IMG/VR virus record: IMGVR_UViG_3300031853_000017
Span: 66,397-83,384 of that record
Length of the DNA: 16,988 bases
Origin: a virus
Taxonomy: Duplodnaviria; Heunggongvirae; Uroviricota; Caudoviricetes
Direction: 5' to 3' (one strand)
The translations under genes and the position numbers were made by a program. Numbering within the stretch: the stretch's first letter is position 1; each line of letters begins with the position of its first letter. Shown here one piece after another: positions 3,005-11,661 of the stretch. The notes beneath the pieces were generated by a model. The model was not told where the DNA came from and made no database searches. It saw only the letters and a program-made list of their open reading frames with translations.

Positions 3005-3607
3005 TTATATTGATTTTTGCAAATAAACATTCACAATATCGTTTTCCCATGCTGTTTTTCTATGGCTTTTTATCCATATACTATACTCCTTGAGGCGTAT
3101 AGCGCCGGCTTCTGCGGATAAACCGAACACAGATTGAATATCATGCGCATTTTTTATTCCTAAAACCTTAAACAGAGGAAATGGAGCTAATAATGTCGCG
3201 GCAAAACAATCAGCTTCAATTTCAAAATATTTATTGTGTATTTGCACAAAATCATTTTCCGCAATTTTGTCTAAAGCCGAAACCAAATGATGACCGCATT
3301 GAATGTGTCCTATTTCGTGTGCCATTGTCCATCTGCGGCGACCATAATTGCTTGTTTCAGAAAGGTTAATCAATATTAAATATCTGTTTGTTTCTACATC
3401 ATAATGAGTGCAGCCGGATTTACTTCTACATAAAGTAATAACATCGTTTACAGTACAATTATTGATTTGCGCGAATTTTTGATATGACATATATTTGCAG
3501 TTCGGCATGAACGGCAATATTCTGTCAAGTTGTAATGGAAATTGAATTTGCGGGAGTTGCGAATAAAGTTTTAATACCAAATTATTGATGTGGATTCTTC
3601 TAATCAT
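3005..3607 (-). CDS. ImmA/IrrE-family metallopeptidase (anti-repressor)
   Basis: RRRWTMAHEIGHIQCGH (HExxH), then EIEADCFAATLLAP (E-x-EA-x-x-FA motif). GGAGG RBS upstream on the minus strand. Confidence 0.9.
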   Translation of the reverse strand: MIRRIHINNLVLKLYSQLPQIQFPLQLDRILPFMPNCKYMSYQKFAQINNCTVNDVITLCRSKSGCTHYDVETNRYLILINLSETSNYGRRRWTMAHEIGHIQCGHHLVSALDKIAENDFVQIHNKYFEIEADCFAATLLAPFPLFKVLGIKNAHDIQSVFGLSAEAGAIRLKEYSIWIKSHRKTAWENDIVNVYLQKSI

Positions 3608-3682
3608 TGTGCTATAGCCTCCAATCTCTTTGACGCTTATTTTTAGTATAACAAAAAGCTTGGGCTATAAAACGGACATTGC

Positions 3683-4030
3683 TCAATTATCTTCATCAAA
3701 TGCGTAACCAAAAGCAAGTTTAATCATTTGTAAAGATTTAGTTTGGTCTTGTGGTGTCATTTTTTCTTTTCCGCGCTGTAGCGTGATGATGTAATCGTCG
3801 CCCAGAAGCTCAGACACAGGTGTTCTAATGTCAGTCCTGCCGAGCAGATAATCAACAGAAACATTAAAATATGTAGCGATTTTTGCTATTTTATCCATAG
3901 ACGGTGATGATGTGTTTTTCCATTTTTGGATTGATGAATAGCCTACTCCTAAATCGCTTTCTAATTTGTTGATTGTGATTCCGCGCTCAGTGCATAGTTC
4001 TTTAATGCGTTTGAATAAAATATTTTCCAT
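3683..4030 (-). CDS. XRE-family HTH repressor (ImmR/cI-like), 115 aa
   Basis: RIKELCTERGITINKLESDLGVGYSSIQKWKNTSSPSMDKIAKIATYFNVSVDYLLGRTD is a classic Cro/C1 HTH. Start moved to the ATG at 4030, which has a GGGAGGG RBS. Confidence 0.92.
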   Translation of the reverse strand: MENILFKRIKELCTERGITINKLESDLGVGYSSIQKWKNTSSPSMDKIAKIATYFNVSVDYLLGRTDIRTPVSELLGDDYIITLQRGKEKMTPQDQTKSLQMIKLAFGYAFDEDN

Positions 4031-4048
4031 GGAAATTCCCTCCCTTTT

Positions 4049-4138
4049 TTTAGTCCTATTTTCTTGAAAAAGTATTGACACCAAGAAATAAATCTGCTAA
4101 AATATAAACTAATCAAGAAAATGCGACTAAATTTTCTT
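4049..4138. promoter_or_regulatory. Candidate repressor operators
   Basis: The 18-mer CAAGAAAATnnGACTAAA occurs at 4114-4131 (+) and 4049-4066 (-), 16/18 identical. There is also a perfect inverted repeat AAGAAAAT-N8-ATTTTCTT at 4115-4138 and a further CAAGAAA at 4082. Confidence 0.6.
4075..4103 (+). promoter_or_regulatory. SigmaA-type rightward promoter (extended -10)
   Basis: TTGACA (4075-4080), 17-bp spacer, TG-n-TAAAAT (-10 at 4098-4103). Confidence 0.85.
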
Positions 4139-4139
4139 C

Positions 4140-4168
4140 ATTATACATTAAAAAATCTTGGAAGTCAA
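4140..4168 (-). promoter_or_regulatory. SigmaA-type leftward promoter for the repressor/peptidase operon
   Basis: Minus strand: TTGACT (4168-4163), 17-bp spacer, TATAAT (4145-4140). Confidence 0.85.
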
Positions 4169-4188: not shown

Positions 4189-4440
4189 ATGTTTTATGCT
4201 ACTTATAAAAAAGTAATAGATGATTGCAGTTTTGACGAAATCGCGGAATTTCAGACCGAACAGGAGCGTGACGATTGGGTTAATTCGCAAGACAGTATTT
4301 TTGAAAGAGAAGCCATTGACGATTTGGAGTTTTTAGGAATAGATTTAGCTGATTATTTTAAGGTTCCAGACACGTTCCCTTCAAAAGAACAATGGTATGC
4401 TACAAATGCTTACATAAGGAGGTTAAATAATGGCGATTAA
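4189..4440 (+). CDS. Small acidic hypothetical protein, first gene of the rightward operon
   Basis: Strong AGGAGG RBS at about 4174-4179; 83 aa; the end overlaps the next start. Confidence 0.75.
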   Translation: MFYATYKKVIDDCSFDEIAEFQTEQERDDWVNSQDSIFEREAIDDLEFLGIDLADYFKVPDTFPSKEQWYATNAYIRRLNNGD

Positions 4441-5287
4441 AGGCGCTATTATCGGAGATATAGTTGGTTCTCCATTTGAATTTAACAATATATACGCAAA
4501 ACAAAATATTAAGCCACAAGATATAGTGTTAAAAGTTGATAAAGGCACAATATATTGTGGTTATAATGATGATAAAACTACAATTTTATCAACTAAAAAG
4601 TGCCATTACACTGACGATACAGTGCTTTCTTTGGGCTTAAAATGGGCTATACAGCATAAAAAGTCATTTTCAGAGGGATTTGCCAAATTTGCGAAAAAAT
4701 ACCGAAATAGCGGATTTGGCGGCATGTTTTGTAATTGGGTAGATTCTGATGATAAGAAACCATATGGAAGTTATGGTAATGGCTCGGCTATGAGAGTTTC
4801 TTACATTGCAGACTTCTTTAATGACAAATTAAAAGTTGCTGAAATGGCAAGAGAATCGGCACTATGTACACATAATCATGAAGAAGGTGTAAAAGGTGCA
4901 GTAGCTACAGCAGTATGTATCGGAATGGCAAAACACGGTCTTGGGAAAGACGATATTCTAAGTTATGGTATTTCAATTTATCCAAAGGAGAAGTATGCTT
5001 ATAGCCCTGAGATACCTCTTTCTGAAATAAGGGAATATTATCGTTGGAATGAAACTTGTCATGGCAGCGTTCCGGCTGTTATTCGCTGCATTTATGAAGC
5101 AAACAATTATACCGAATTTATCAAAAATGTATTAAGTTTGCCATGCGATACTGATACATTATGCGCGATCGGCGGTGGTATTGCCGAGGAATTATTCGAC
5201 AATGGCGATGATGAATTATTATCACACACAGATGAAATCTTAGAAGAATATCTTGATGATTATTTATTAGCAGTATTAAAAGAATAA
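4430..5287 (+). CDS. ADP-ribosylglycohydrolase (DraG/ARH family)
   Basis: GAIIGDIVGS, YTDDT, GSYGNGSAMR, THNHEEGVKGA and DTDTLCAIGGGIAE are the metal-binding motifs of the ARH family. GGAGG RBS. Confidence 0.93.
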   Translation: MAIKGAIIGDIVGSPFEFNNIYAKQNIKPQDIVLKVDKGTIYCGYNDDKTTILSTKKCHYTDDTVLSLGLKWAIQHKKSFSEGFAKFAKKYRNSGFGGMFCNWVDSDDKKPYGSYGNGSAMRVSYIADFFNDKLKVAEMARESALCTHNHEEGVKGAVATAVCIGMAKHGLGKDDILSYGISIYPKEKYAYSPEIPLSEIREYYRWNETCHGSVPAVIRCIYEANNYTEFIKNVLSLPCDTDTLCAIGGGIAEELFDNGDDELLSHTDEILEEYLDDYLLAVLKE

Positions 5288-5322: not shown

Positions 5323-5351
5323 TTGACAAATGGTTACAAATATGTTACAAT
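5323..5351 (+). promoter_or_regulatory. SigmaA-type promoter for the nucleotidyltransferase operon
   Basis: TTGACA (5323-5328), 17-bp spacer, TG-n-TACAAT (-10 at 5346-5351). Confidence 0.85.
5333..5349 (-). promoter_or_regulatory. OmpR-family (WalR-like) direct-repeat box overlapping the promoter
   Basis: The minus strand reads TGTAAC-ATATT-TGTAAC, matching the WalR consensus TGTWAH-N5-TGTWAH. Confidence 0.45.
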
Positions 5352-5378
5352 TATTACAGAGATGAAATGAGGGTAAAA

Positions 5379-6419
5379 ATGGTAAATAACATTAGTGAAT
5401 TACTAAAATCTCAGCCATATGATTTTCTAAGAAACAATGAAAACTTGGCAGAAAACATTATTCTTCTTGGATATGGAGGAAGTTATGCTTATGGAACAAA
5501 TAACGATAACTCTGATGTGGATATTCGTGGGATAGCTACAAACAGTTCGAGGAATATCCTCACAGGGCGGGATTTTGAACAGGTTGTAGATGTTCCTACG
5601 GACACGACGATCTATTCATTTGATAAAATCGTGAAATTACTTTGCTCCTGTAATCCTAACACGGTGGAAATTCTTGGGCTTAAACCAGAGCATTATTTCT
5701 TGCTTTCAGACGCAGGGCGAAAATTGATCGCAAATCGCCATTTATTTTTATCCAAATTAGCTATTCATTCTTTTGGAGGATATGCAAATGCGCAGCTCCG
5801 CCGTTTAGAAAACTTCACGGCAAGAAATTCAAGCCAATCTCAGTTAGAAAAACATATTCTTAAAAGTATCGAACACGCTTCGGTTGATTTCAAGAATAGA
5901 TATTTCGATATGCCGGAAGATTCAATCAAACTGTATATTGATAAATCTCCGCGAGATGATTACGAAACCGAAATCTTTTGTGACGTAACATTAAAGCATT
6001 ATCCTCTCCGTGACCATAAAGGTATGCTGAATGATATGGGAACAATTATTCAGCAGTATAAGAAAATGGGAAAAAGAAATAGTAAGGCTTATGAACATAA
6101 CAAAATAGGAAAGCATATGATGCACCTTGTTCGGCTTTATCTTATGGCTTTTGACATTCTTGAAAAGGGTGAAATCAATACCTACCGTGAGAAAGACCAT
6201 GATTTTCTTATGGAGATTCGTAATGGAAAATATCTTGATAGCAACCAGAAACCAACAAAAGAATTTTATGAGATCGTAAATGAATATGAGCACAAACTTG
6301 ACGATCTAAAAAATACAACAAATTTGCCGGAAGTTCCCGATATGGATAAAGTTATGGATTTAGTTGAAGAAATAAACGGAAATGTTATATGTAAAAATTG
6401 CGGATATTTTAATGGTTAA
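5379..6419 (+). CDS. Pol-beta-superfamily nucleotidyltransferase, RlaP-like (Nuc-transf family)
   Basis: GGSYAYGTNNDNSDVDIRG (GS..YG...SDxD), CNPNTVEIL and C-terminal KHMMHLVRLYLMAFDILEKG helix. ATG at 5379 (GAGGG RBS) is preferred over 5367. Confidence 0.85.
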   Translation: MVNNISELLKSQPYDFLRNNENLAENIILLGYGGSYAYGTNNDNSDVDIRGIATNSSRNILTGRDFEQVVDVPTDTTIYSFDKIVKLLCSCNPNTVEILGLKPEHYFLLSDAGRKLIANRHLFLSKLAIHSFGGYANAQLRRLENFTARNSSQSQLEKHILKSIEHASVDFKNRYFDMPEDSIKLYIDKSPRDDYETEIFCDVTLKHYPLRDHKGMLNDMGTIIQQYKKMGKRNSKAYEHNKIGKHMMHLVRLYLMAFDILEKGEINTYREKDHDFLMEIRNGKYLDSNQKPTKEFYEIVNEYEHKLDDLKNTTNLPEVPDMDKVMDLVEEINGNVICKNCGYFNG

Positions 6420-6428
6420 GAGGTATTT

Positions 6429-7397
6429 ATGAAAAAAGAAGATGTATTAAAATCTATTGGTTTGAAAAAGAGGTTTTGTAAAGATTGCAATTTACCGATT
6501 AACCTCTTTGACGAACCTTATTTTATGCAAAGGCTAAAAATACTCGATGCTCTGTTTGATTGTGTAAAAAAATTTGATACATTTTGCATAGAGCTTGAAT
6601 CTTTTGATGACGAGCAAAGTTATTTTGAATATTACAGCTCAGTAAAAGATAGTGTAATAACCATGATTAAAAATAGTCAAGGATATTACAAGTTTATAAA
6701 TGATGATTTTTCTGATGCGCGTATTATTAAACATACGGTTATGCTCGGAAAAAATAACCTATATGTGGAAGGTAATACCGACAAATCTTTTGTTTCAATA
6801 GATATGAATAAAGCGAATTTTTCCGCGCTTCGACATTATAATGCTGAAATATTCAAGAAGAAAGAAACATGGGAAGATTATATTGGTGCTTTCACATGGA
6901 GCGAACACATTAAAAACAGTAAGTATATCCGGCAGGTAATTCTTGGCGCTTGTAATCCTAAAAAGCAAATTACATACGAAACATATTTAATGACGATTCT
7001 ATATCTGCATATTAAAGATGTTCTTGGTGATAGAGTTAAATTTTATAGTTTAACTACCGATGAACTTATTATTGATATACAGAATACGAACTGTACTTTA
7101 AAAGAAATTGAAGAAGTAATTTCAAGCTGCCAACAGAATATTGGCTCTTTAGTACGCTGCGAATATTTCAAGTTGCGTAAAATAAGCAATTTTGGTTGGT
7201 TGAAAGAAATCTATAAGCATGATGAAAACAACGATATGTTCAAGGATAACATTGTGTTTAAAGGATTAAATGCCGATATTTACCACCAGATTGTTAAACA
7301 TTTCTTCGGTAACGAAATCACAGAAGATGATCTTGTGTTTCGTTACAATGGTGAACTTGCCCGTTTCTTGAAAGAGGTGGATAATCCGTGGAAATGA
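6429..7397 (+). CDS. Hypothetical protein with palm-polymerase-like acidic motifs
   Basis: 322 aa, GAGGT RBS. FVSIDMNKANFSAL and FYSLTTDELII resemble palm motifs A and C. The fold assignment is inference. Confidence 0.7.
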   Translation: MKKEDVLKSIGLKKRFCKDCNLPINLFDEPYFMQRLKILDALFDCVKKFDTFCIELESFDDEQSYFEYYSSVKDSVITMIKNSQGYYKFINDDFSDARIIKHTVMLGKNNLYVEGNTDKSFVSIDMNKANFSALRHYNAEIFKKKETWEDYIGAFTWSEHIKNSKYIRQVILGACNPKKQITYETYLMTILYLHIKDVLGDRVKFYSLTTDELIIDIQNTNCTLKEIEEVISSCQQNIGSLVRCEYFKLRKISNFGWLKEIYKHDENNDMFKDNIVFKGLNADIYHQIVKHFFGNEITEDDLVFRYNGELARFLKEVDNPWK

Positions 7398-8755
7398 ACA
7401 TTAAACTTCCAATGCCGGTACAGTTCATTCTCAATAGATTAAACGACAATGGTTATGAGGGATTTATTGTTGGCGGTTGTGTTAGAGATAGTCTTATGGG
7501 TATTAAACCGCATGATTGGGATATTTGTACATCCGCGCTGCCGGAGCAAGTGATGGAGTTGTTTAAAGACTTCAAAGTGATTCCAACAGGTATCAAACAC
7601 GGAACCGTATCTGTGGTTTTTGATGATAAGCCTGAAAATATTTTTGAAATAACCACTTACAGAATTGACGGAGAGTATAAAGATAATCGCCATCCAGAAA
7701 CGGTGAAGTTCGTTACAGACCTTGAATTAGACCTCTCTCGTAGAGATTTTACCATCAATGCTATTGCTTATAATGAGGTTAAAGGAATTGTTGACCCGTT
7801 CGGAGGATATGATGATATTATTGAAAAGCGTATAAAATGCGTTGGTAATCCAAATGATAGAATAAATGAGGACGCATTACGGATTATGAGAGCAATCAGG
7901 TTTGCACTCAGATTTAACTGTGATATTGATTCCGAAACATTATCAGCAATACATAAAAATAAAGATTTACTAAAAAAAGTATCGGCAGAACGAATTAACT
8001 CTGAATTAACAAAAATACTGAGTTATCCGCTTCTACCATTCAATCCTTCCGAATATAAAAAAACTCCATATAACGAAAGAATAAAAACCCAAGTTTACAT
8101 ACTGTTATATTTAATAGAATCAGTTGTCCCGTGGGCTGGATTTCTCAATGATAGAAAAACTTTTTATCGGCTGTGGTTTGCAAATTCATCAAATTGTGCA
8201 TTGAATTTGGCTATTATTTTGGGTAGTAATTTTGGGGATAAAACGTCTTTTGAAATACTCAAACAGTTAAGATTTTCAAATGAAATAATTGATTCCGTTG
8301 GGAAGATTCTTCAATATGCAGATGAAATAAGTAAGAGTTTTCATACTTGGGTAAGCACAAATTATGGTATTTTCCCATCAAAAATAAAAATATCAAAATA
8401 TTATGCACGAAAACTATTACACAATTTAGACTATATCACTATCAATCTTGCTTTGGATTGCGCAAAAGTTTTTTCTATTTATTCTGATAAACAGCCAATT
8501 AGTCAGCTTTTATATCTTGAATGTATTGAAAAATTACGAGAAGAAGTTAATAAATGCAGAGAAAATGGAGATGTTTATGATTTAAAATATCTTGCTGTGG
8601 ATGGAACTGATCTTATTTTGCTTGGATATAAAGGGAAAATAATTGGTGAAATTCTTGATAGTTTATTGGAAATGGTGATGAAAGATGAAATACCAAATAG
8701 CCGCGATTCTTTAATTTATACAATAAATACAACATTTGCGAGTGATTGCAAATAG
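7388..8755 (+). CDS. cca: Class II tRNA nucleotidyltransferase (CCA-adding enzyme)
   Basis: VGGCVRD...PHDWD (motif A), EITTYR plus flexible loop DGEYKDNRHP, DLSRRDFTINA (motif B), EDALRIMRAIRFA (motif D) and SAERINSEL. GTG start with GAGGTG RBS. Confidence 0.92.
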   Translation: MEMNIKLPMPVQFILNRLNDNGYEGFIVGGCVRDSLMGIKPHDWDICTSALPEQVMELFKDFKVIPTGIKHGTVSVVFDDKPENIFEITTYRIDGEYKDNRHPETVKFVTDLELDLSRRDFTINAIAYNEVKGIVDPFGGYDDIIEKRIKCVGNPNDRINEDALRIMRAIRFALRFNCDIDSETLSAIHKNKDLLKKVSAERINSELTKILSYPLLPFNPSEYKKTPYNERIKTQVYILLYLIESVVPWAGFLNDRKTFYRLWFANSSNCALNLAIILGSNFGDKTSFEILKQLRFSNEIIDSVGKILQYADEISKSFHTWVSTNYGIFPSKIKISKYYARKLLHNLDYITINLALDCAKVFSIYSDKQPISQLLYLECIEKLREEVNKCRENGDVYDLKYLAVDGTDLILLGYKGKIIGEILDSLLEMVMKDEIPNSRDSLIYTINTTFASDCK

Positions 8756-9081
8756 CAGAATATAAATGTCCGGAATGCGGCTGTGAAAGAGTATATTCAA
8801 TCCCAAAAGGTTTGCGGCATGGTGTGTATTGTGCAGAATGTAATACATGGATATGTTGGACTACCTATAAAAAAATGAAAGAAATCTATAAGCAAATAGA
8901 TAATGATAGTTTGAATGATGATGTGTCTATAAGAAAAACAAAAACACGAAATGGAATTACCAAAATGAATTGTGAAAAGTGTGGCTGCTTATTATATGAT
9001 TCGACATCACCAAAAGTGGAAGGGCAATTCGATTTGGTTAATGCTATTTACTGCCCAAAATGCGGTAGAAAACTAATTTAA
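8746..9081 (+). CDS. Double Zn-ribbon hypothetical protein
   Basis: Four CxxC pairs (CPEC, CAEC, CEKC, CPKC); TTG start overlapping the cca stop. Confidence 0.7.
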   Translation: MQIAEYKCPECGCERVYSIPKGLRHGVYCAECNTWICWTTYKKMKEIYKQIDNDSLNDDVSIRKTKTRNGITKMNCEKCGCLLYDSTSPKVEGQFDLVNAIYCPKCGRKLI

Positions 9082-9142: not shown

Positions 9143-10165
9143 ATGAGATTAAAGAATGAATGGATTAACGGCGATTGCTTGAAAGAGTTGAAAAAATTGC
9201 CGGATGAAAGCGTCCATCTTATCGTAACTTCACCTCCGTATCACAATCTAAGGGTTTACAGTAACGACCCTTGTGACTTATCTAATTGCGAGTCTTATGA
9301 TGAATATTATTATTTGCTTGGGCTTGTGATTGCCGAGTGCCAGCGCGTACTTGTGCCAGGGGGTAAATTTGTTCTTCAATACGAAGATTACAATTATACA
9401 ATAGGTAGAGATGGTAAAAACGGACAGGAAAGTTTAACTGGTAAGTTGAATGACATCTTTTTAGGATATGGTTTTTCGTTGTGGACAAAAGCATTTTGGC
9501 GTAAATATTCCGCTCAGAGAGCTATGCTTGCCCAGGGCAATTTATATTACAGGAACATGAAGGCAAGAGATACAATCCTTGCGGCAAACGTCGGCTTTGT
9601 TTATGTGTATAAAAAAGAGGGAGATTGTGAGTTAATCAAGGCTTCCGATATTACTCTTGCTGAATGGGCTGATTGGGCTGACGGTGTATGGAATATTCCA
9701 AATCAAGGAATTTCACATAGTACACCATTTGCAGAAGAACTTGTTAAAAGATGTATCAAACTCTGGTCTTGCCCTTATGATACCGTATTAGACCCATTCG
9801 CTGGTGCTGGAACAGTAAACAAAGTAGCCATAGAAAATCACAGAAATGCTATCGGAATTGAATTGCAAAAAGAGTATTACGATTTAGCTATTGAAAAAAG
9901 ATTTTCACTTTGGGACGATAGTATTTTTGAAACAGATGATTCTATTGAGAAAATGAAAGAGCGTTTTGCAGAACAACTTGCGATTGGTAAAGAACAGAGC
10001 GAAAACGCAAAGGCAGCAAAAGAGGAACAAAAACAATTGGCACAAAAGAAGAAAGATATTCGTGCAGAAATCAAGGAGCTTGAAACACAGTTAAAGGCTC
10101 TCGGCGTTAAAGCAAAAGAAATTAAGGAGATCAAAGATAATTCACTGAGGTTATTTAATGATTGA
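9143..10165 (+). CDS. Orphan beta-class DNA amino-methyltransferase (SPPY, likely m4C) with C-terminal coiled coil
   Basis: GDC...HLIVTSPPY, HSTPFAEELV and VLDPFAGAGT. Start moved to the ATG at 9143 (GGAG RBS at 9132). The last ~70 aa are Lys/Glu/Ala/Gln-rich and heptad-like. Confidence 0.9.
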   Translation: MRLKNEWINGDCLKELKKLPDESVHLIVTSPPYHNLRVYSNDPCDLSNCESYDEYYYLLGLVIAECQRVLVPGGKFVLQYEDYNYTIGRDGKNGQESLTGKLNDIFLGYGFSLWTKAFWRKYSAQRAMLAQGNLYYRNMKARDTILAANVGFVYVYKKEGDCELIKASDITLAEWADWADGVWNIPNQGISHSTPFAEELVKRCIKLWSCPYDTVLDPFAGAGTVNKVAIENHRNAIGIELQKEYYDLAIEKRFSLWDDSIFETDDSIEKMKERFAEQLAIGKEQSENAKAAKEEQKQLAQKKKDIRAEIKELETQLKALGVKAKEIKEIKDNSLRLFND

Positions 10166-11661
10166 ACTTGAAATCCCTGTTGAGCAAATACCGTACATCA
10201 GAACAATCGAAGGAAGAAAATTTAGAGATGGCAAGTGGCAATTTCCCGATTCATCACTAAATAAGTTAATTCAATTAGGCTTGGTTTCATCAGATACTAA
10301 GCCTATTGAAAAGACTATGAAACAATATTCTATATCACCGTTTCTGCGTAATTATCAAAAAGAAATTTGCAACAAGGCATTAAACGCTGAAAATTATGGT
10401 GTCTTTGCCGACACAGGTACGGGTAAAACCGTTATGGGTTTGGAAATAGCAAAATTTTACTCCAAGTCACTGATTTTGTGTCCTTTATCTGTAATAGAAA
10501 CAGCTTGGATTGATGATTGCCGAAAATTTTACCCAAATAGAAAAATTATTAATGTTTGGGGAAACTCAAAAGCAGAAAGGCTCAAAAGCAGAAAGGCTTA
10601 AACACCTAAATACCGAAGCTGATATTTATGTGATGAATTACGATAGTTTTAAGATACTTCGCAACGAAATTCGCAAAGCTAATTTTGATTGTATTGTGGT
10701 TGATGAAAGTAGCGTAATGAAAAATATGAAAAGCCAAATTACTGCTATGCTTTTAGATATTGCGACTATTATTCCGCACAGATTTGTTTTGAGTGGATGC
10801 CCCACACCCAATCATAATAGTGAAATATTTCCCCAAATGAAATTTGTGAATCCAGAGGTTTTTGGAAACAACTACTATGGATTTCTTGCAAAATATTTTC
10901 ATCAGGATATGTCAAATCCGCACTATTGGTTTCAAACTGACGAAGATAAAGACCGATACTATCAAAGACTTGATGAACAATCAGTTTTCCTAAAGAAAGA
11001 AGATTGTTTAGACCTTCCCGAACAAGTCTTTGAAATTCGCAAATTTGATATGTCAAAAACTCAAAGACGCTACTATGACGATATTGAGAATGATATTCGT
11101 GAACATATAAATCAATGGAGCAAATTTGAGTTTACCGCCAAGTTAATGAAACTCCGCGAGGTCGTTAGTGGTTTCGTAATCAATAAAGACAAGACTATAA
11201 CCACATTTGATAACGACAAAGAGAAACTATTACAAGAAGTCGTTTCCGAAATTGGCAATCAACCGATTATTGTATGGTGTCAGTTTACGCACGAAATTGA
11301 ATCACTTGCAAAGAAATTTAACGGCGTGGCATTAACATCTAAAACCAAAAATCGTGATGATATTATCCGGCAGTTTAAGAATAACAAAATCAATTTATTA
11401 TTCACGCACCCAAAACTAATCGGCAAAGGTTTAACCTTTACTAATTGCACTTACAATATTTACTATTCTATGAGTTTTAGCTATGAAGAATTTAAGCAAA
11501 GTAAAGATAGGATTCACAGAATAGGTCAAGGCAATAAATGCACATACATAATTTTACAGGCTAATAACTCCATTGAAGAAAAGATTTACGATTGTGTCCA
11601 GCGAAAAGGGAATGCAGTTGATGAATTGTATCTTGAAATGGGACTAAGAAACGCGAGTTAG
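10158..11661 (+). pseudogene. SNF2-family helicase split by a frameshift
   Basis: The first ORF holds Walker A (DTGTGKT). The second holds DESS, LSGCP, GKGLTFT and QSKDRIHRIGQ. Removing one 16-bp copy at 10565-10596 gives a single 495-aa ORF. Confidence 0.9.
10565..10598 (+). repeat. 16-bp tandem duplication (CTCAAAAGCAGAAAGG)x2 + CT
   Basis: Read directly from the sequence: copies at 10565-10580 and 10581-10596. Confidence 0.95.

Follow-up and report, generated by a model that had tools for sequence, protein, structure and literature searches.

Here, we report an operon of a tailed phage (Caudoviricetes) that couples a nucleotidyltransferase of the RlaP family, an uncharacterized protein with a polymerase-like predicted fold, hereafter protein X, and a CCA-adding enzyme. 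The operon lies in a stretch of 16,988 nucleotides (the window), which is the final 17 kb of the 83-kb IMG/VR viral record IMGVR_UViG_3300031853_000017; the completeness of this record is estimated at 53%. On the plus strand, a sigma-70-type promoter with an extended -10 element (5323-5351; TTGACA, a 17-nt spacer and TGtTACAAT) matches the consensus at 11 of 12 positions and is one of only three such sites between 4000 and 9400. It is followed by the gene of the RlaP-family Pol-beta nucleotidyltransferase (5367-6419, plus strand, 350 amino acids), the gene of protein X (6429-7397, plus strand, 322 amino acids), whose predicted palm and fingers resemble those of family-B polymerases, and the gene of the class-II CCA-adding enzyme or tRNA nucleotidyltransferase (7388-8755, plus strand, 455 amino acids). 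The gap between the RlaP and X genes is 9 nt, and, with the GTG at 7388 taken as its start, the CCA gene overlaps X by 10 nt; alternatively, the CCA gene may start with the ATG at 7394, which would leave a 4-nt ATGA overlap with X. For the RlaP gene, the ATG at 5379 is more likely the true start than that at 5367, because a GAGGG ribosome-binding site (5369-5373) precedes the former and the latter is located just 16 nt past the -10 box. A fourth coupled gene (8746-9081, plus strand) overlaps the end of the CCA gene and encodes a protein of 111 amino acids with two CxxC...CxxC zinc ribbons and weak matches to zinc-ribbon families of Pfam. We found no convincing terminator within the gene set, and with their single promoter and coupled translation we regard the genes as a real operon.

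The initial annotation of this DNA had described one strong promoter, three tightly coupled genes and intact catalytic motifs. This description holds with slightly revised starts: GGS...SDVD in RlaP, D125 and TTDE in X, and DWD, RRD and EDALR in the CCA-adding enzyme are all present. The fourth gene was absent from it. The gene of an ADP-ribosylglycohydrolase (ARH; 4430-5287, plus strand; PF03747, E 1.1e-24), which it had noted directly upstream, is better placed outside the module: it lies upstream of 5323 behind a different promoter, and an ARH gene is found within three genes of X in only six of the 60 groups of X loci described below.

Predicted fold and conservation of protein X

The interest of the locus rests almost wholly on the polymerase-like family to which X belongs. 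X has no match in Pfam or PHROGs, a profile of 53 X sequences searched against all PDB sequences returned nothing at E values up to 10, and a protein atlas gave only clusters of hypothetical proteins plus weak leads to R3H and DNA_pol_B_2. A profile search, counted in clusters at 50% identity, collected about 1,840, with E < 1e-30 for 703; the family is large and unannotated in every library searched here. As far as we found, no paper describes X, and we saw no mention of it in the two publications on RlaP in RNA repair (PMC7824862 and bioRxiv 10.64898/2025.12.29.696909).

An AlphaFold2 (AF2) model of X built with 29 homologues has a predicted local distance difference test score (pLDDT) of 90.2 and a predicted template modeling score (pTM) of 0.84. 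The model starts with N-terminal helices and continues into a palm; the fingers are inserted after the first strand of this palm and before a beta-hairpin, and a short C-terminal element follows. It has neither an exonuclease domain nor a real thumb. Pol alpha matches in Foldseek at E 2e-4 and has the highest VIA-align score (Z 9.1, residues 107-279), followed by Pol delta (Z 8.4) and the polymerase of herpes simplex virus (HSV; Z 8.2); RB69 gp43 aligns over 266 residues across the whole model. Family-B polymerases occupy the top ranks with 163-270 residues aligned, and below them stand family-A polymerases (chains at Z 5.7-6.7), reverse transcriptases and GGDEF-type palms, all at Z 5-7. According to the structure-search tool, Z values of 7-8 are common, and the scores of X count as moderate. 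Judged from the model, X probably has a polymerase palm and fingers fold.

The conserved residues of X are placed accordingly in the model. S123 and E212 are invariant in 53 diverse members with a mean column identity of 30%, and D125, A129-N130-F131, K165, R168, G173, N176, D211, K278 and D301 are invariant or at least 90% conserved in the same alignment. D125 closes the strand 120-126, and D211-E212 (of TTDE) sit in the hairpin between the strands 204-208 and 212-216; in the predicted fold, this arrangement would correspond to motifs A, B, and C of polymerases. The helix that carries K165, R168, G173 and N176 may resemble the Kx3NSxYG motif of family-B polymerases, which we take as a lead only.

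Structural relatives of X are also present among predicted proteins of giant viruses that infect amoebae (BFVD and AFDB): Klosneuvirus, Hyperionvirus, Barrevirus, Tupanvirus and Pandoravirus proteins match at template modeling (TM) scores of 0.64-0.81 by model length. Among these, some carry the name R3H-domain protein, and a Medusavirus protein that matches less well (TM 0.57) is annotated as a DEDDy exonuclease. These matches between predicted folds hint that the X family extends to eukaryotic viruses. Longer forms of X are known as well: in Lachnospiraceae genomes, 499-residue forms (L068:5395-6894 and L063) carry a C-terminal extension of about 190 residues without a Pfam match, and extended forms of 375-499 residues in general had no Pfam match. 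Among the fused or extended forms, Pfam matches were confined to the RlaP fusion P0255 described below and to a form with a DUF444 fragment (P0269), the latter probably an artefact of gene calling.

The partner enzymes and their linkage to protein X

The first gene product is assigned to RlaP by a Pfam match that spans residues 29-148 only (PF10127, E 1.1e-14, 55.2 bits against a cut-off of 23) and by a PHROGs match over residues 4-341 (phrog_388, E 4e-52). Its Pol-beta motif is intact, with GGS, D46xD48 and D75 (numbered from the ATG at 5379) invariant in 29 orthologues. Its AF2 model (pLDDT 81.5) matches no solved structure strongly, the best being KNTase, ANT and Hailong HalB at E of about 0.02, and no solved RlaP structure was found in the copy of the structure database that we searched. 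Pseudomonas RlaP adds one or two nucleoside monophosphates to RNA 3'-OH ends, favors mimics of cleaved tRNA and is inactive on DNA (bioRxiv 10.64898/2025.12.29.696909); this biochemistry dates from late 2025 only. A survey of jumbo phages already names RlaP and CCA-adding enzymes as restorers of nucleotides lost from RNA ends (PMC7824862).

The third gene product is built of a head, an RNA-binding and a tail domain; it matches PF01743 in its head (E 6.9e-36), PF12627 and PF13735 beyond it, and phrog_2244. The motifs GGCVRD...DWD (residues 29-45), RRD (118-120) and EDALR (161-165) correspond to motifs A, B, and D. Its closest solved relatives are the CCA-adding enzymes 6ibp (186 bits) and 1miv (174 bits), versus 101 bits for Escherichia coli poly(A) polymerase and 50-58 bits for split-activity (A-adding or CC-adding) enzymes; on these sequence grounds, we assign it as a CCA-adding enzyme and not a poly(A) polymerase. 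CCA-adding enzymes rebuild the CCA end of tRNA. The record has 15 tRNA genes outside the window (C1:33473-43240), and 13 of these encode the CCA end, so that the enzyme is unneeded for maturing most of the phage tRNAs; this fits a role in repair or maintenance. The tRNA cluster also has a tRNA-Ile with the anticodon TAT and one 72-nt tRNA with the anticodon TCA, which ARAGORN labels 'SeC' and which could be a UGA-reading suppressor.

To describe the linkage of X, 207 X loci from viral contigs, genomes and assemblies were collected, and their open reading frames (ORFs) were called and scored with hidden Markov models built from the loci. Counts refer to 60 X groups, made non-redundant at 85% identity and flanked by three or more genes in either direction, and the census covers those X loci that tblastn reaches from the X protein of this operon. 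RlaP adjoins X in 39 of the 60 groups and is found within three genes in 41. The CCA enzyme adjoins X in 24 groups, every time with RlaP present, i.e., the trio occurs in 24/60. The gene order of the trio is constant and its flanks vary among loci; the relatives also keep the tight junctions, the distance from RlaP to X being mostly -4 to +18 nt and the X and CCA genes nearly always overlapping. Grouping at 60% identity instead yields 25 groups, with RlaP near X in 13 and the CCA enzyme near X in nine. In chromosomes of Lachnospiraceae (L042, L044, L049), the RlaP-X pair stands by itself, surrounded by housekeeping genes, and where X is only 26-35% identical, RlaP is still found next to it or nearby (L031, L062, L067).

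Both partners are found fused to X in nature. An RlaP-X fusion of 839 amino acids (P0255) with a Pfam RlaP match comes from two samples, and an X-CCA fusion of 813 amino acids (P0274), known from one contig, joins its parts by a linker of about 45 residues, includes an HD domain in its CCA part and has an RlaP gene directly before it. Complex prediction for RlaP with X gave a score of 0.00, which is no verdict on binding either way.

Other genes are found within three genes of X less often: the zinc-ribbon protein in 11/60 groups, a DHH-DHHA1 phosphoesterase in 8/60, an RNA ligase of PF09414 in 5/60, and the NAD-dependent ligase LigA in 4/60. The zinc-ribbon homologue comes after the CCA gene in L002, L004, L006 and others, as it does here, and in L039 the RNA ligase lies immediately 3' of X. 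In a branch of X from jumbo phages (L196:7346-8135, L033 and L197; contigs of 332-394 kb), no RlaP is present and a short NAD-dependent ligase of about 367 amino acids is near; the same branch has, near X, a 103-residue protein and a 162-residue HEPN protein (PF05168, E 4e-8), which together resemble an MNT-HEPN pair.

A proposed role in RNA 3'-end repair and its alternatives

On balance, we think it probable that the operon is an RNA repair module with the RlaP-X pair as its core, and that the RNA ends concerned are most likely the 3' ends of tRNA; the repair would most likely operate during infection. From the fold, the conserved residues, the missing processivity domains and the partner genes, a mechanism of three steps can be suggested. 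X would be an active short-patch polymerase, lacking a thumb or proofreading domain, that extends a recessed RNA 3' end, e.g., by refilling the 3' strand of a trimmed acceptor stem with the 5' strand as a template. RlaP would next add the untemplated nucleotide, that of the discriminator position, leaving the CCA enzyme to finish the terminus. Binding of the RNA may be assisted by the zinc-ribbon protein, and in related phages the RNA ligase or the DHH phosphoesterase encoded in the same neighborhood may join in.

Repair of RNA or tRNA ends had been the theme of the initial annotation, and repair of 3' ends fits the gene context, the biochemistry of RlaP (bioRxiv 10.64898/2025.12.29.696909) and the jumbo-phage survey (PMC7824862). 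Co-occurrence of the three genes elsewhere, a check set beforehand, is borne out by the trio in its constant order between differing flanks; the palm-like character that had been given to the middle protein agrees with the polymerase-palm fold of the predicted model, and the tRNA genes that had been looked to elsewhere in the element are there. A ligase-independent route had also been proposed. It is correct that the window has no RNA ligase; the 83-kb record, which is about 53% complete, has no match to PF09414 either, and the PHROGs scan of the window ORFs gave no family of the T4 Pnkp/Rnl1 type, with the kinase not searched by profile and the record incomplete. The ligase-independent route itself is not supported, since relatives have a PF09414 ligase beside X, the record is only about half complete, and LigA and a DHH-DHHA1 phosphoesterase (C1:49659-50597, about 50% identical to the X-adjoining one of other phages) are encoded elsewhere in the same phage, both 10-20 kb upstream of the operon. 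Nothing in our analysis points to the reversal of toxin modifications, which had been offered as a further function. As a whole, the earlier interpretation is partly supported.

A wider reading of X is more tentative. X might be the founder of a new class of minimal, family-B-related polymerases, occurring in phages, bacteria and giant viruses, that rebuild recessed tRNA 3' ends in a template-guided manner together with RlaP and the CCA enzyme; the giant-virus members of such a class would include the R3H and DEDDy-exonuclease fusions suggested by the structural matches. We regard this as possible but doubtful. The repair kit itself is of a known kind, i.e., RlaP and CCA enzymes in phage RNA repair have been published; X, as far as we found, has not.

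Several observations weigh against RNA-end repair by the RlaP-X pair. The fold scores of X are moderate (Z not above 9.1) and no link to polymerases was found at the sequence level; membership in family B is not established. The sequence of X indicates neither its substrate (RNA or DNA) nor dependence on a template. In the deepest X branches, RlaP is nearby in just three of nine groups, and some members adjoin an NAD-dependent DNA ligase instead (L031, L033, L196, L197). Among cultured phages, RlaP homologues are found in 281 records and X in three, so that most RlaP occurs without X: tblastn of X against 50,697 phage records gave three matches only (Salicola phage SCTP-2, an uncultured 642-kb phage and a faecal contig), BLAST recognized no RlaP or CCA neighbors at these three, and a Clostridioides difficile phage RlaP (46% identity) has neither X nor a CCA enzyme beside it. 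With RlaP widespread without X, X is best seen as an accessory that only some RlaP systems have. Finally, large phages of gut and rumen Clostridia that are related to one another account for many of the trio loci, and their synteny partly reflects shared ancestry.

The best of the other explanations, which we nevertheless consider unlikely, is that X is a DNA-directed gap-filling or repair polymerase that works with the phage NAD-dependent ligase, the cluster serving the repair of nucleic-acid ends in general. The best structural matches of X are DNA polymerases, LigA within three genes of X occurs in the four groups mentioned above, including jumbo-phage contigs without RlaP, and the same genome encodes a full-length LigA (C1:56644-58680), 10-20 kb upstream of the operon, while neither PolA nor PolB was found in the 83-kb record. 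Against this, by far the commonest partners of X are specific for RNA, i.e., RlaP, which is inactive on DNA, the CCA enzyme and RNA ligase; the fusions join X to just two of these, RlaP and the CCA enzyme, and X, with neither a thumb nor an exonuclease domain, is too small for a replicase.

X could also be the relic of a polymerase, without catalytic activity, on which RlaP and the CCA enzyme rely as a scaffold or an adaptor that binds RNA, comparable to herpesvirus UL8 in the helicase-primase. Inactivated family-B subunits of the UL8 type are among the fold matches of X, and the missing thumb and exonuclease domain would suit such a role. We find this quite improbable: the predicted metal-binding residues and those of the fingers helix are near-invariant in a family whose mean column identity is 30%, the pattern expected from purifying selection on an active site.

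Slightly less credible still, RlaP and X might make or alter a small oligonucleotide or signaling nucleotide, as a counter-defense or a signal, with a palm of the GGDEF, Cas10 or mCpol kind and a DHH phosphoesterase degrading the product. GGDEF cyclases, mCpol and DRT-type palms do appear among the fold matches (Z 5-7), the RlaP model is weakly like Hailong HalB, which makes oligodeoxyadenylate (E 0.02), and DHH-DHHA1 genes are near X in the eight groups counted above. However, family-B polymerases consistently outrank the cyclases and align also over the fingers and N-terminal helices, the characterized RlaP enzymes work on RNA ends, and linkage and fusion to a CCA enzyme find no place in such a scheme. 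That the three genes are adjacent merely by shared ancestry in one phage lineage, with no joint work, is hardly tenable even with many trio loci from related Clostridia phages, since the order stays while both flanks change, overlapping stop and start codons are conserved, the pair is found in bacterial chromosomes and at 26-35% X identity, and two independent fusions exist.

RNA-repair kits of phages keep translation going when hosts cut their own tRNAs, and a conserved, at times fused, polymerase-like partner suggests that one step of 3'-end repair is missing from the present picture. Should X prove to be a polymerase of RNA ends whose fold derives from family B, it would represent a new class of enzymes and a compact tool (about 320 amino acids) of possible use in manipulating RNA 3' ends, and a family of about 1,800 unannotated sequence clusters would gain a function.

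Phage setting and comparison with known systems

The nearest relatives of the record are contigs from genomes of Ruminococcus and other Clostridia and contigs of 90-190 kb from large phages of the gut or rumen; the source is a large gut phage, probably of Ruminococcus. Elsewhere, the window encodes GroES/GroEL, two DNA methyltransferases, a radical-SAM protein and a SNF2-type helicase in two pieces. The latter (SNF2/DEAD type, phrog_62) is split into overlapping ORFs at 10158-10601 (147 amino acids) and 10510-11661 (383 amino acids), and related loci (L006, L025, L029) have a single gene of about 495-530 amino acids at this position. Rfam found no RNA family, and ARAGORN no tRNA, in the window. 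Upstream (3005-4084, minus strand, and 4075-4168), an ImmA-like M78 peptidase and an XRE repressor form a minus-strand pair whose transcription runs away from that of the ARH and repair genes, with strong divergent or face-to-face promoters; many related loci (L023, L026, L029, L037) likewise have this pair ahead of RlaP-X. In two related phages (L006, L208), adenylosuccinate-synthetase-like genes are located a few kb from the module.

With the known RlaP systems of RNA repair, i.e., Pseudomonas RtcB-RlaP-RtcA, T4 NrdC.11 and the RlaP plus RNA ligase sets of jumbo phages, the operon shares PF10127 and an intact Pol-beta motif. Related loci have a PF09414 RNA ligase nearby, and the phage context and repair theme agree (PMC7824862; bioRxiv 10.64898/2025.12.29.696909). 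In contrast to all of these, this operon has no ligase, kinase or phosphatase, and its RlaP is coupled to X and a CCA enzyme. The CCA enzyme, in turn, has all catalytic and nucleotide-selection motifs of the head and the Pfam body and tail domains of bacterial class-II enzymes (Geobacillus 1miv, Planococcus 6ibp), but it is phage-encoded, translationally coupled to X and, in one relative (P0274), fused to it.

Compared with family-B polymerases (Pol alpha, HSV UL30, RB69 gp43), the predicted palm, fingers and preceding helices of X superpose at Z 7-9. In the model, the first palm strand would likewise end in an acidic residue and the beta-hairpin would hold an acidic pair, with a basic, conserved helix placed between the two. 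X differs in its length (322 versus 800-1,200 amino acids), in having no exonuclease domain or thumb, in showing no detectable sequence similarity, and in its context among RNA-repair rather than replication genes. Another comparison is with divPolA2, which barbaviruses and other phages encode as a divergent polymerase of family A that has no thumb (Virol J 2024, PMC11348598); in structure, it comes closest to family-A polymerases and mitochondrial RNA polymerase. Like divPolA2, X is a small polymerase-like protein that its phage has in addition to, and apart from, replication enzymes, and each has an unrelated N-terminal domain and no exonuclease. We rejected a relation between the two, with an hhalign probability of 0.3% and a BLASTP E of 9.9 against AUR84708 as the single representative, and with X closest to family B.

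Thg1-like proteins, which repair tRNA 5' ends in a template-dependent way, are absent from the listed fold matches of X and differ from it in the direction of synthesis and in the end repaired. Conceptually, however, the role proposed for X would be their mirror image: a palm enzyme that copies the opposite strand of the acceptor stem.

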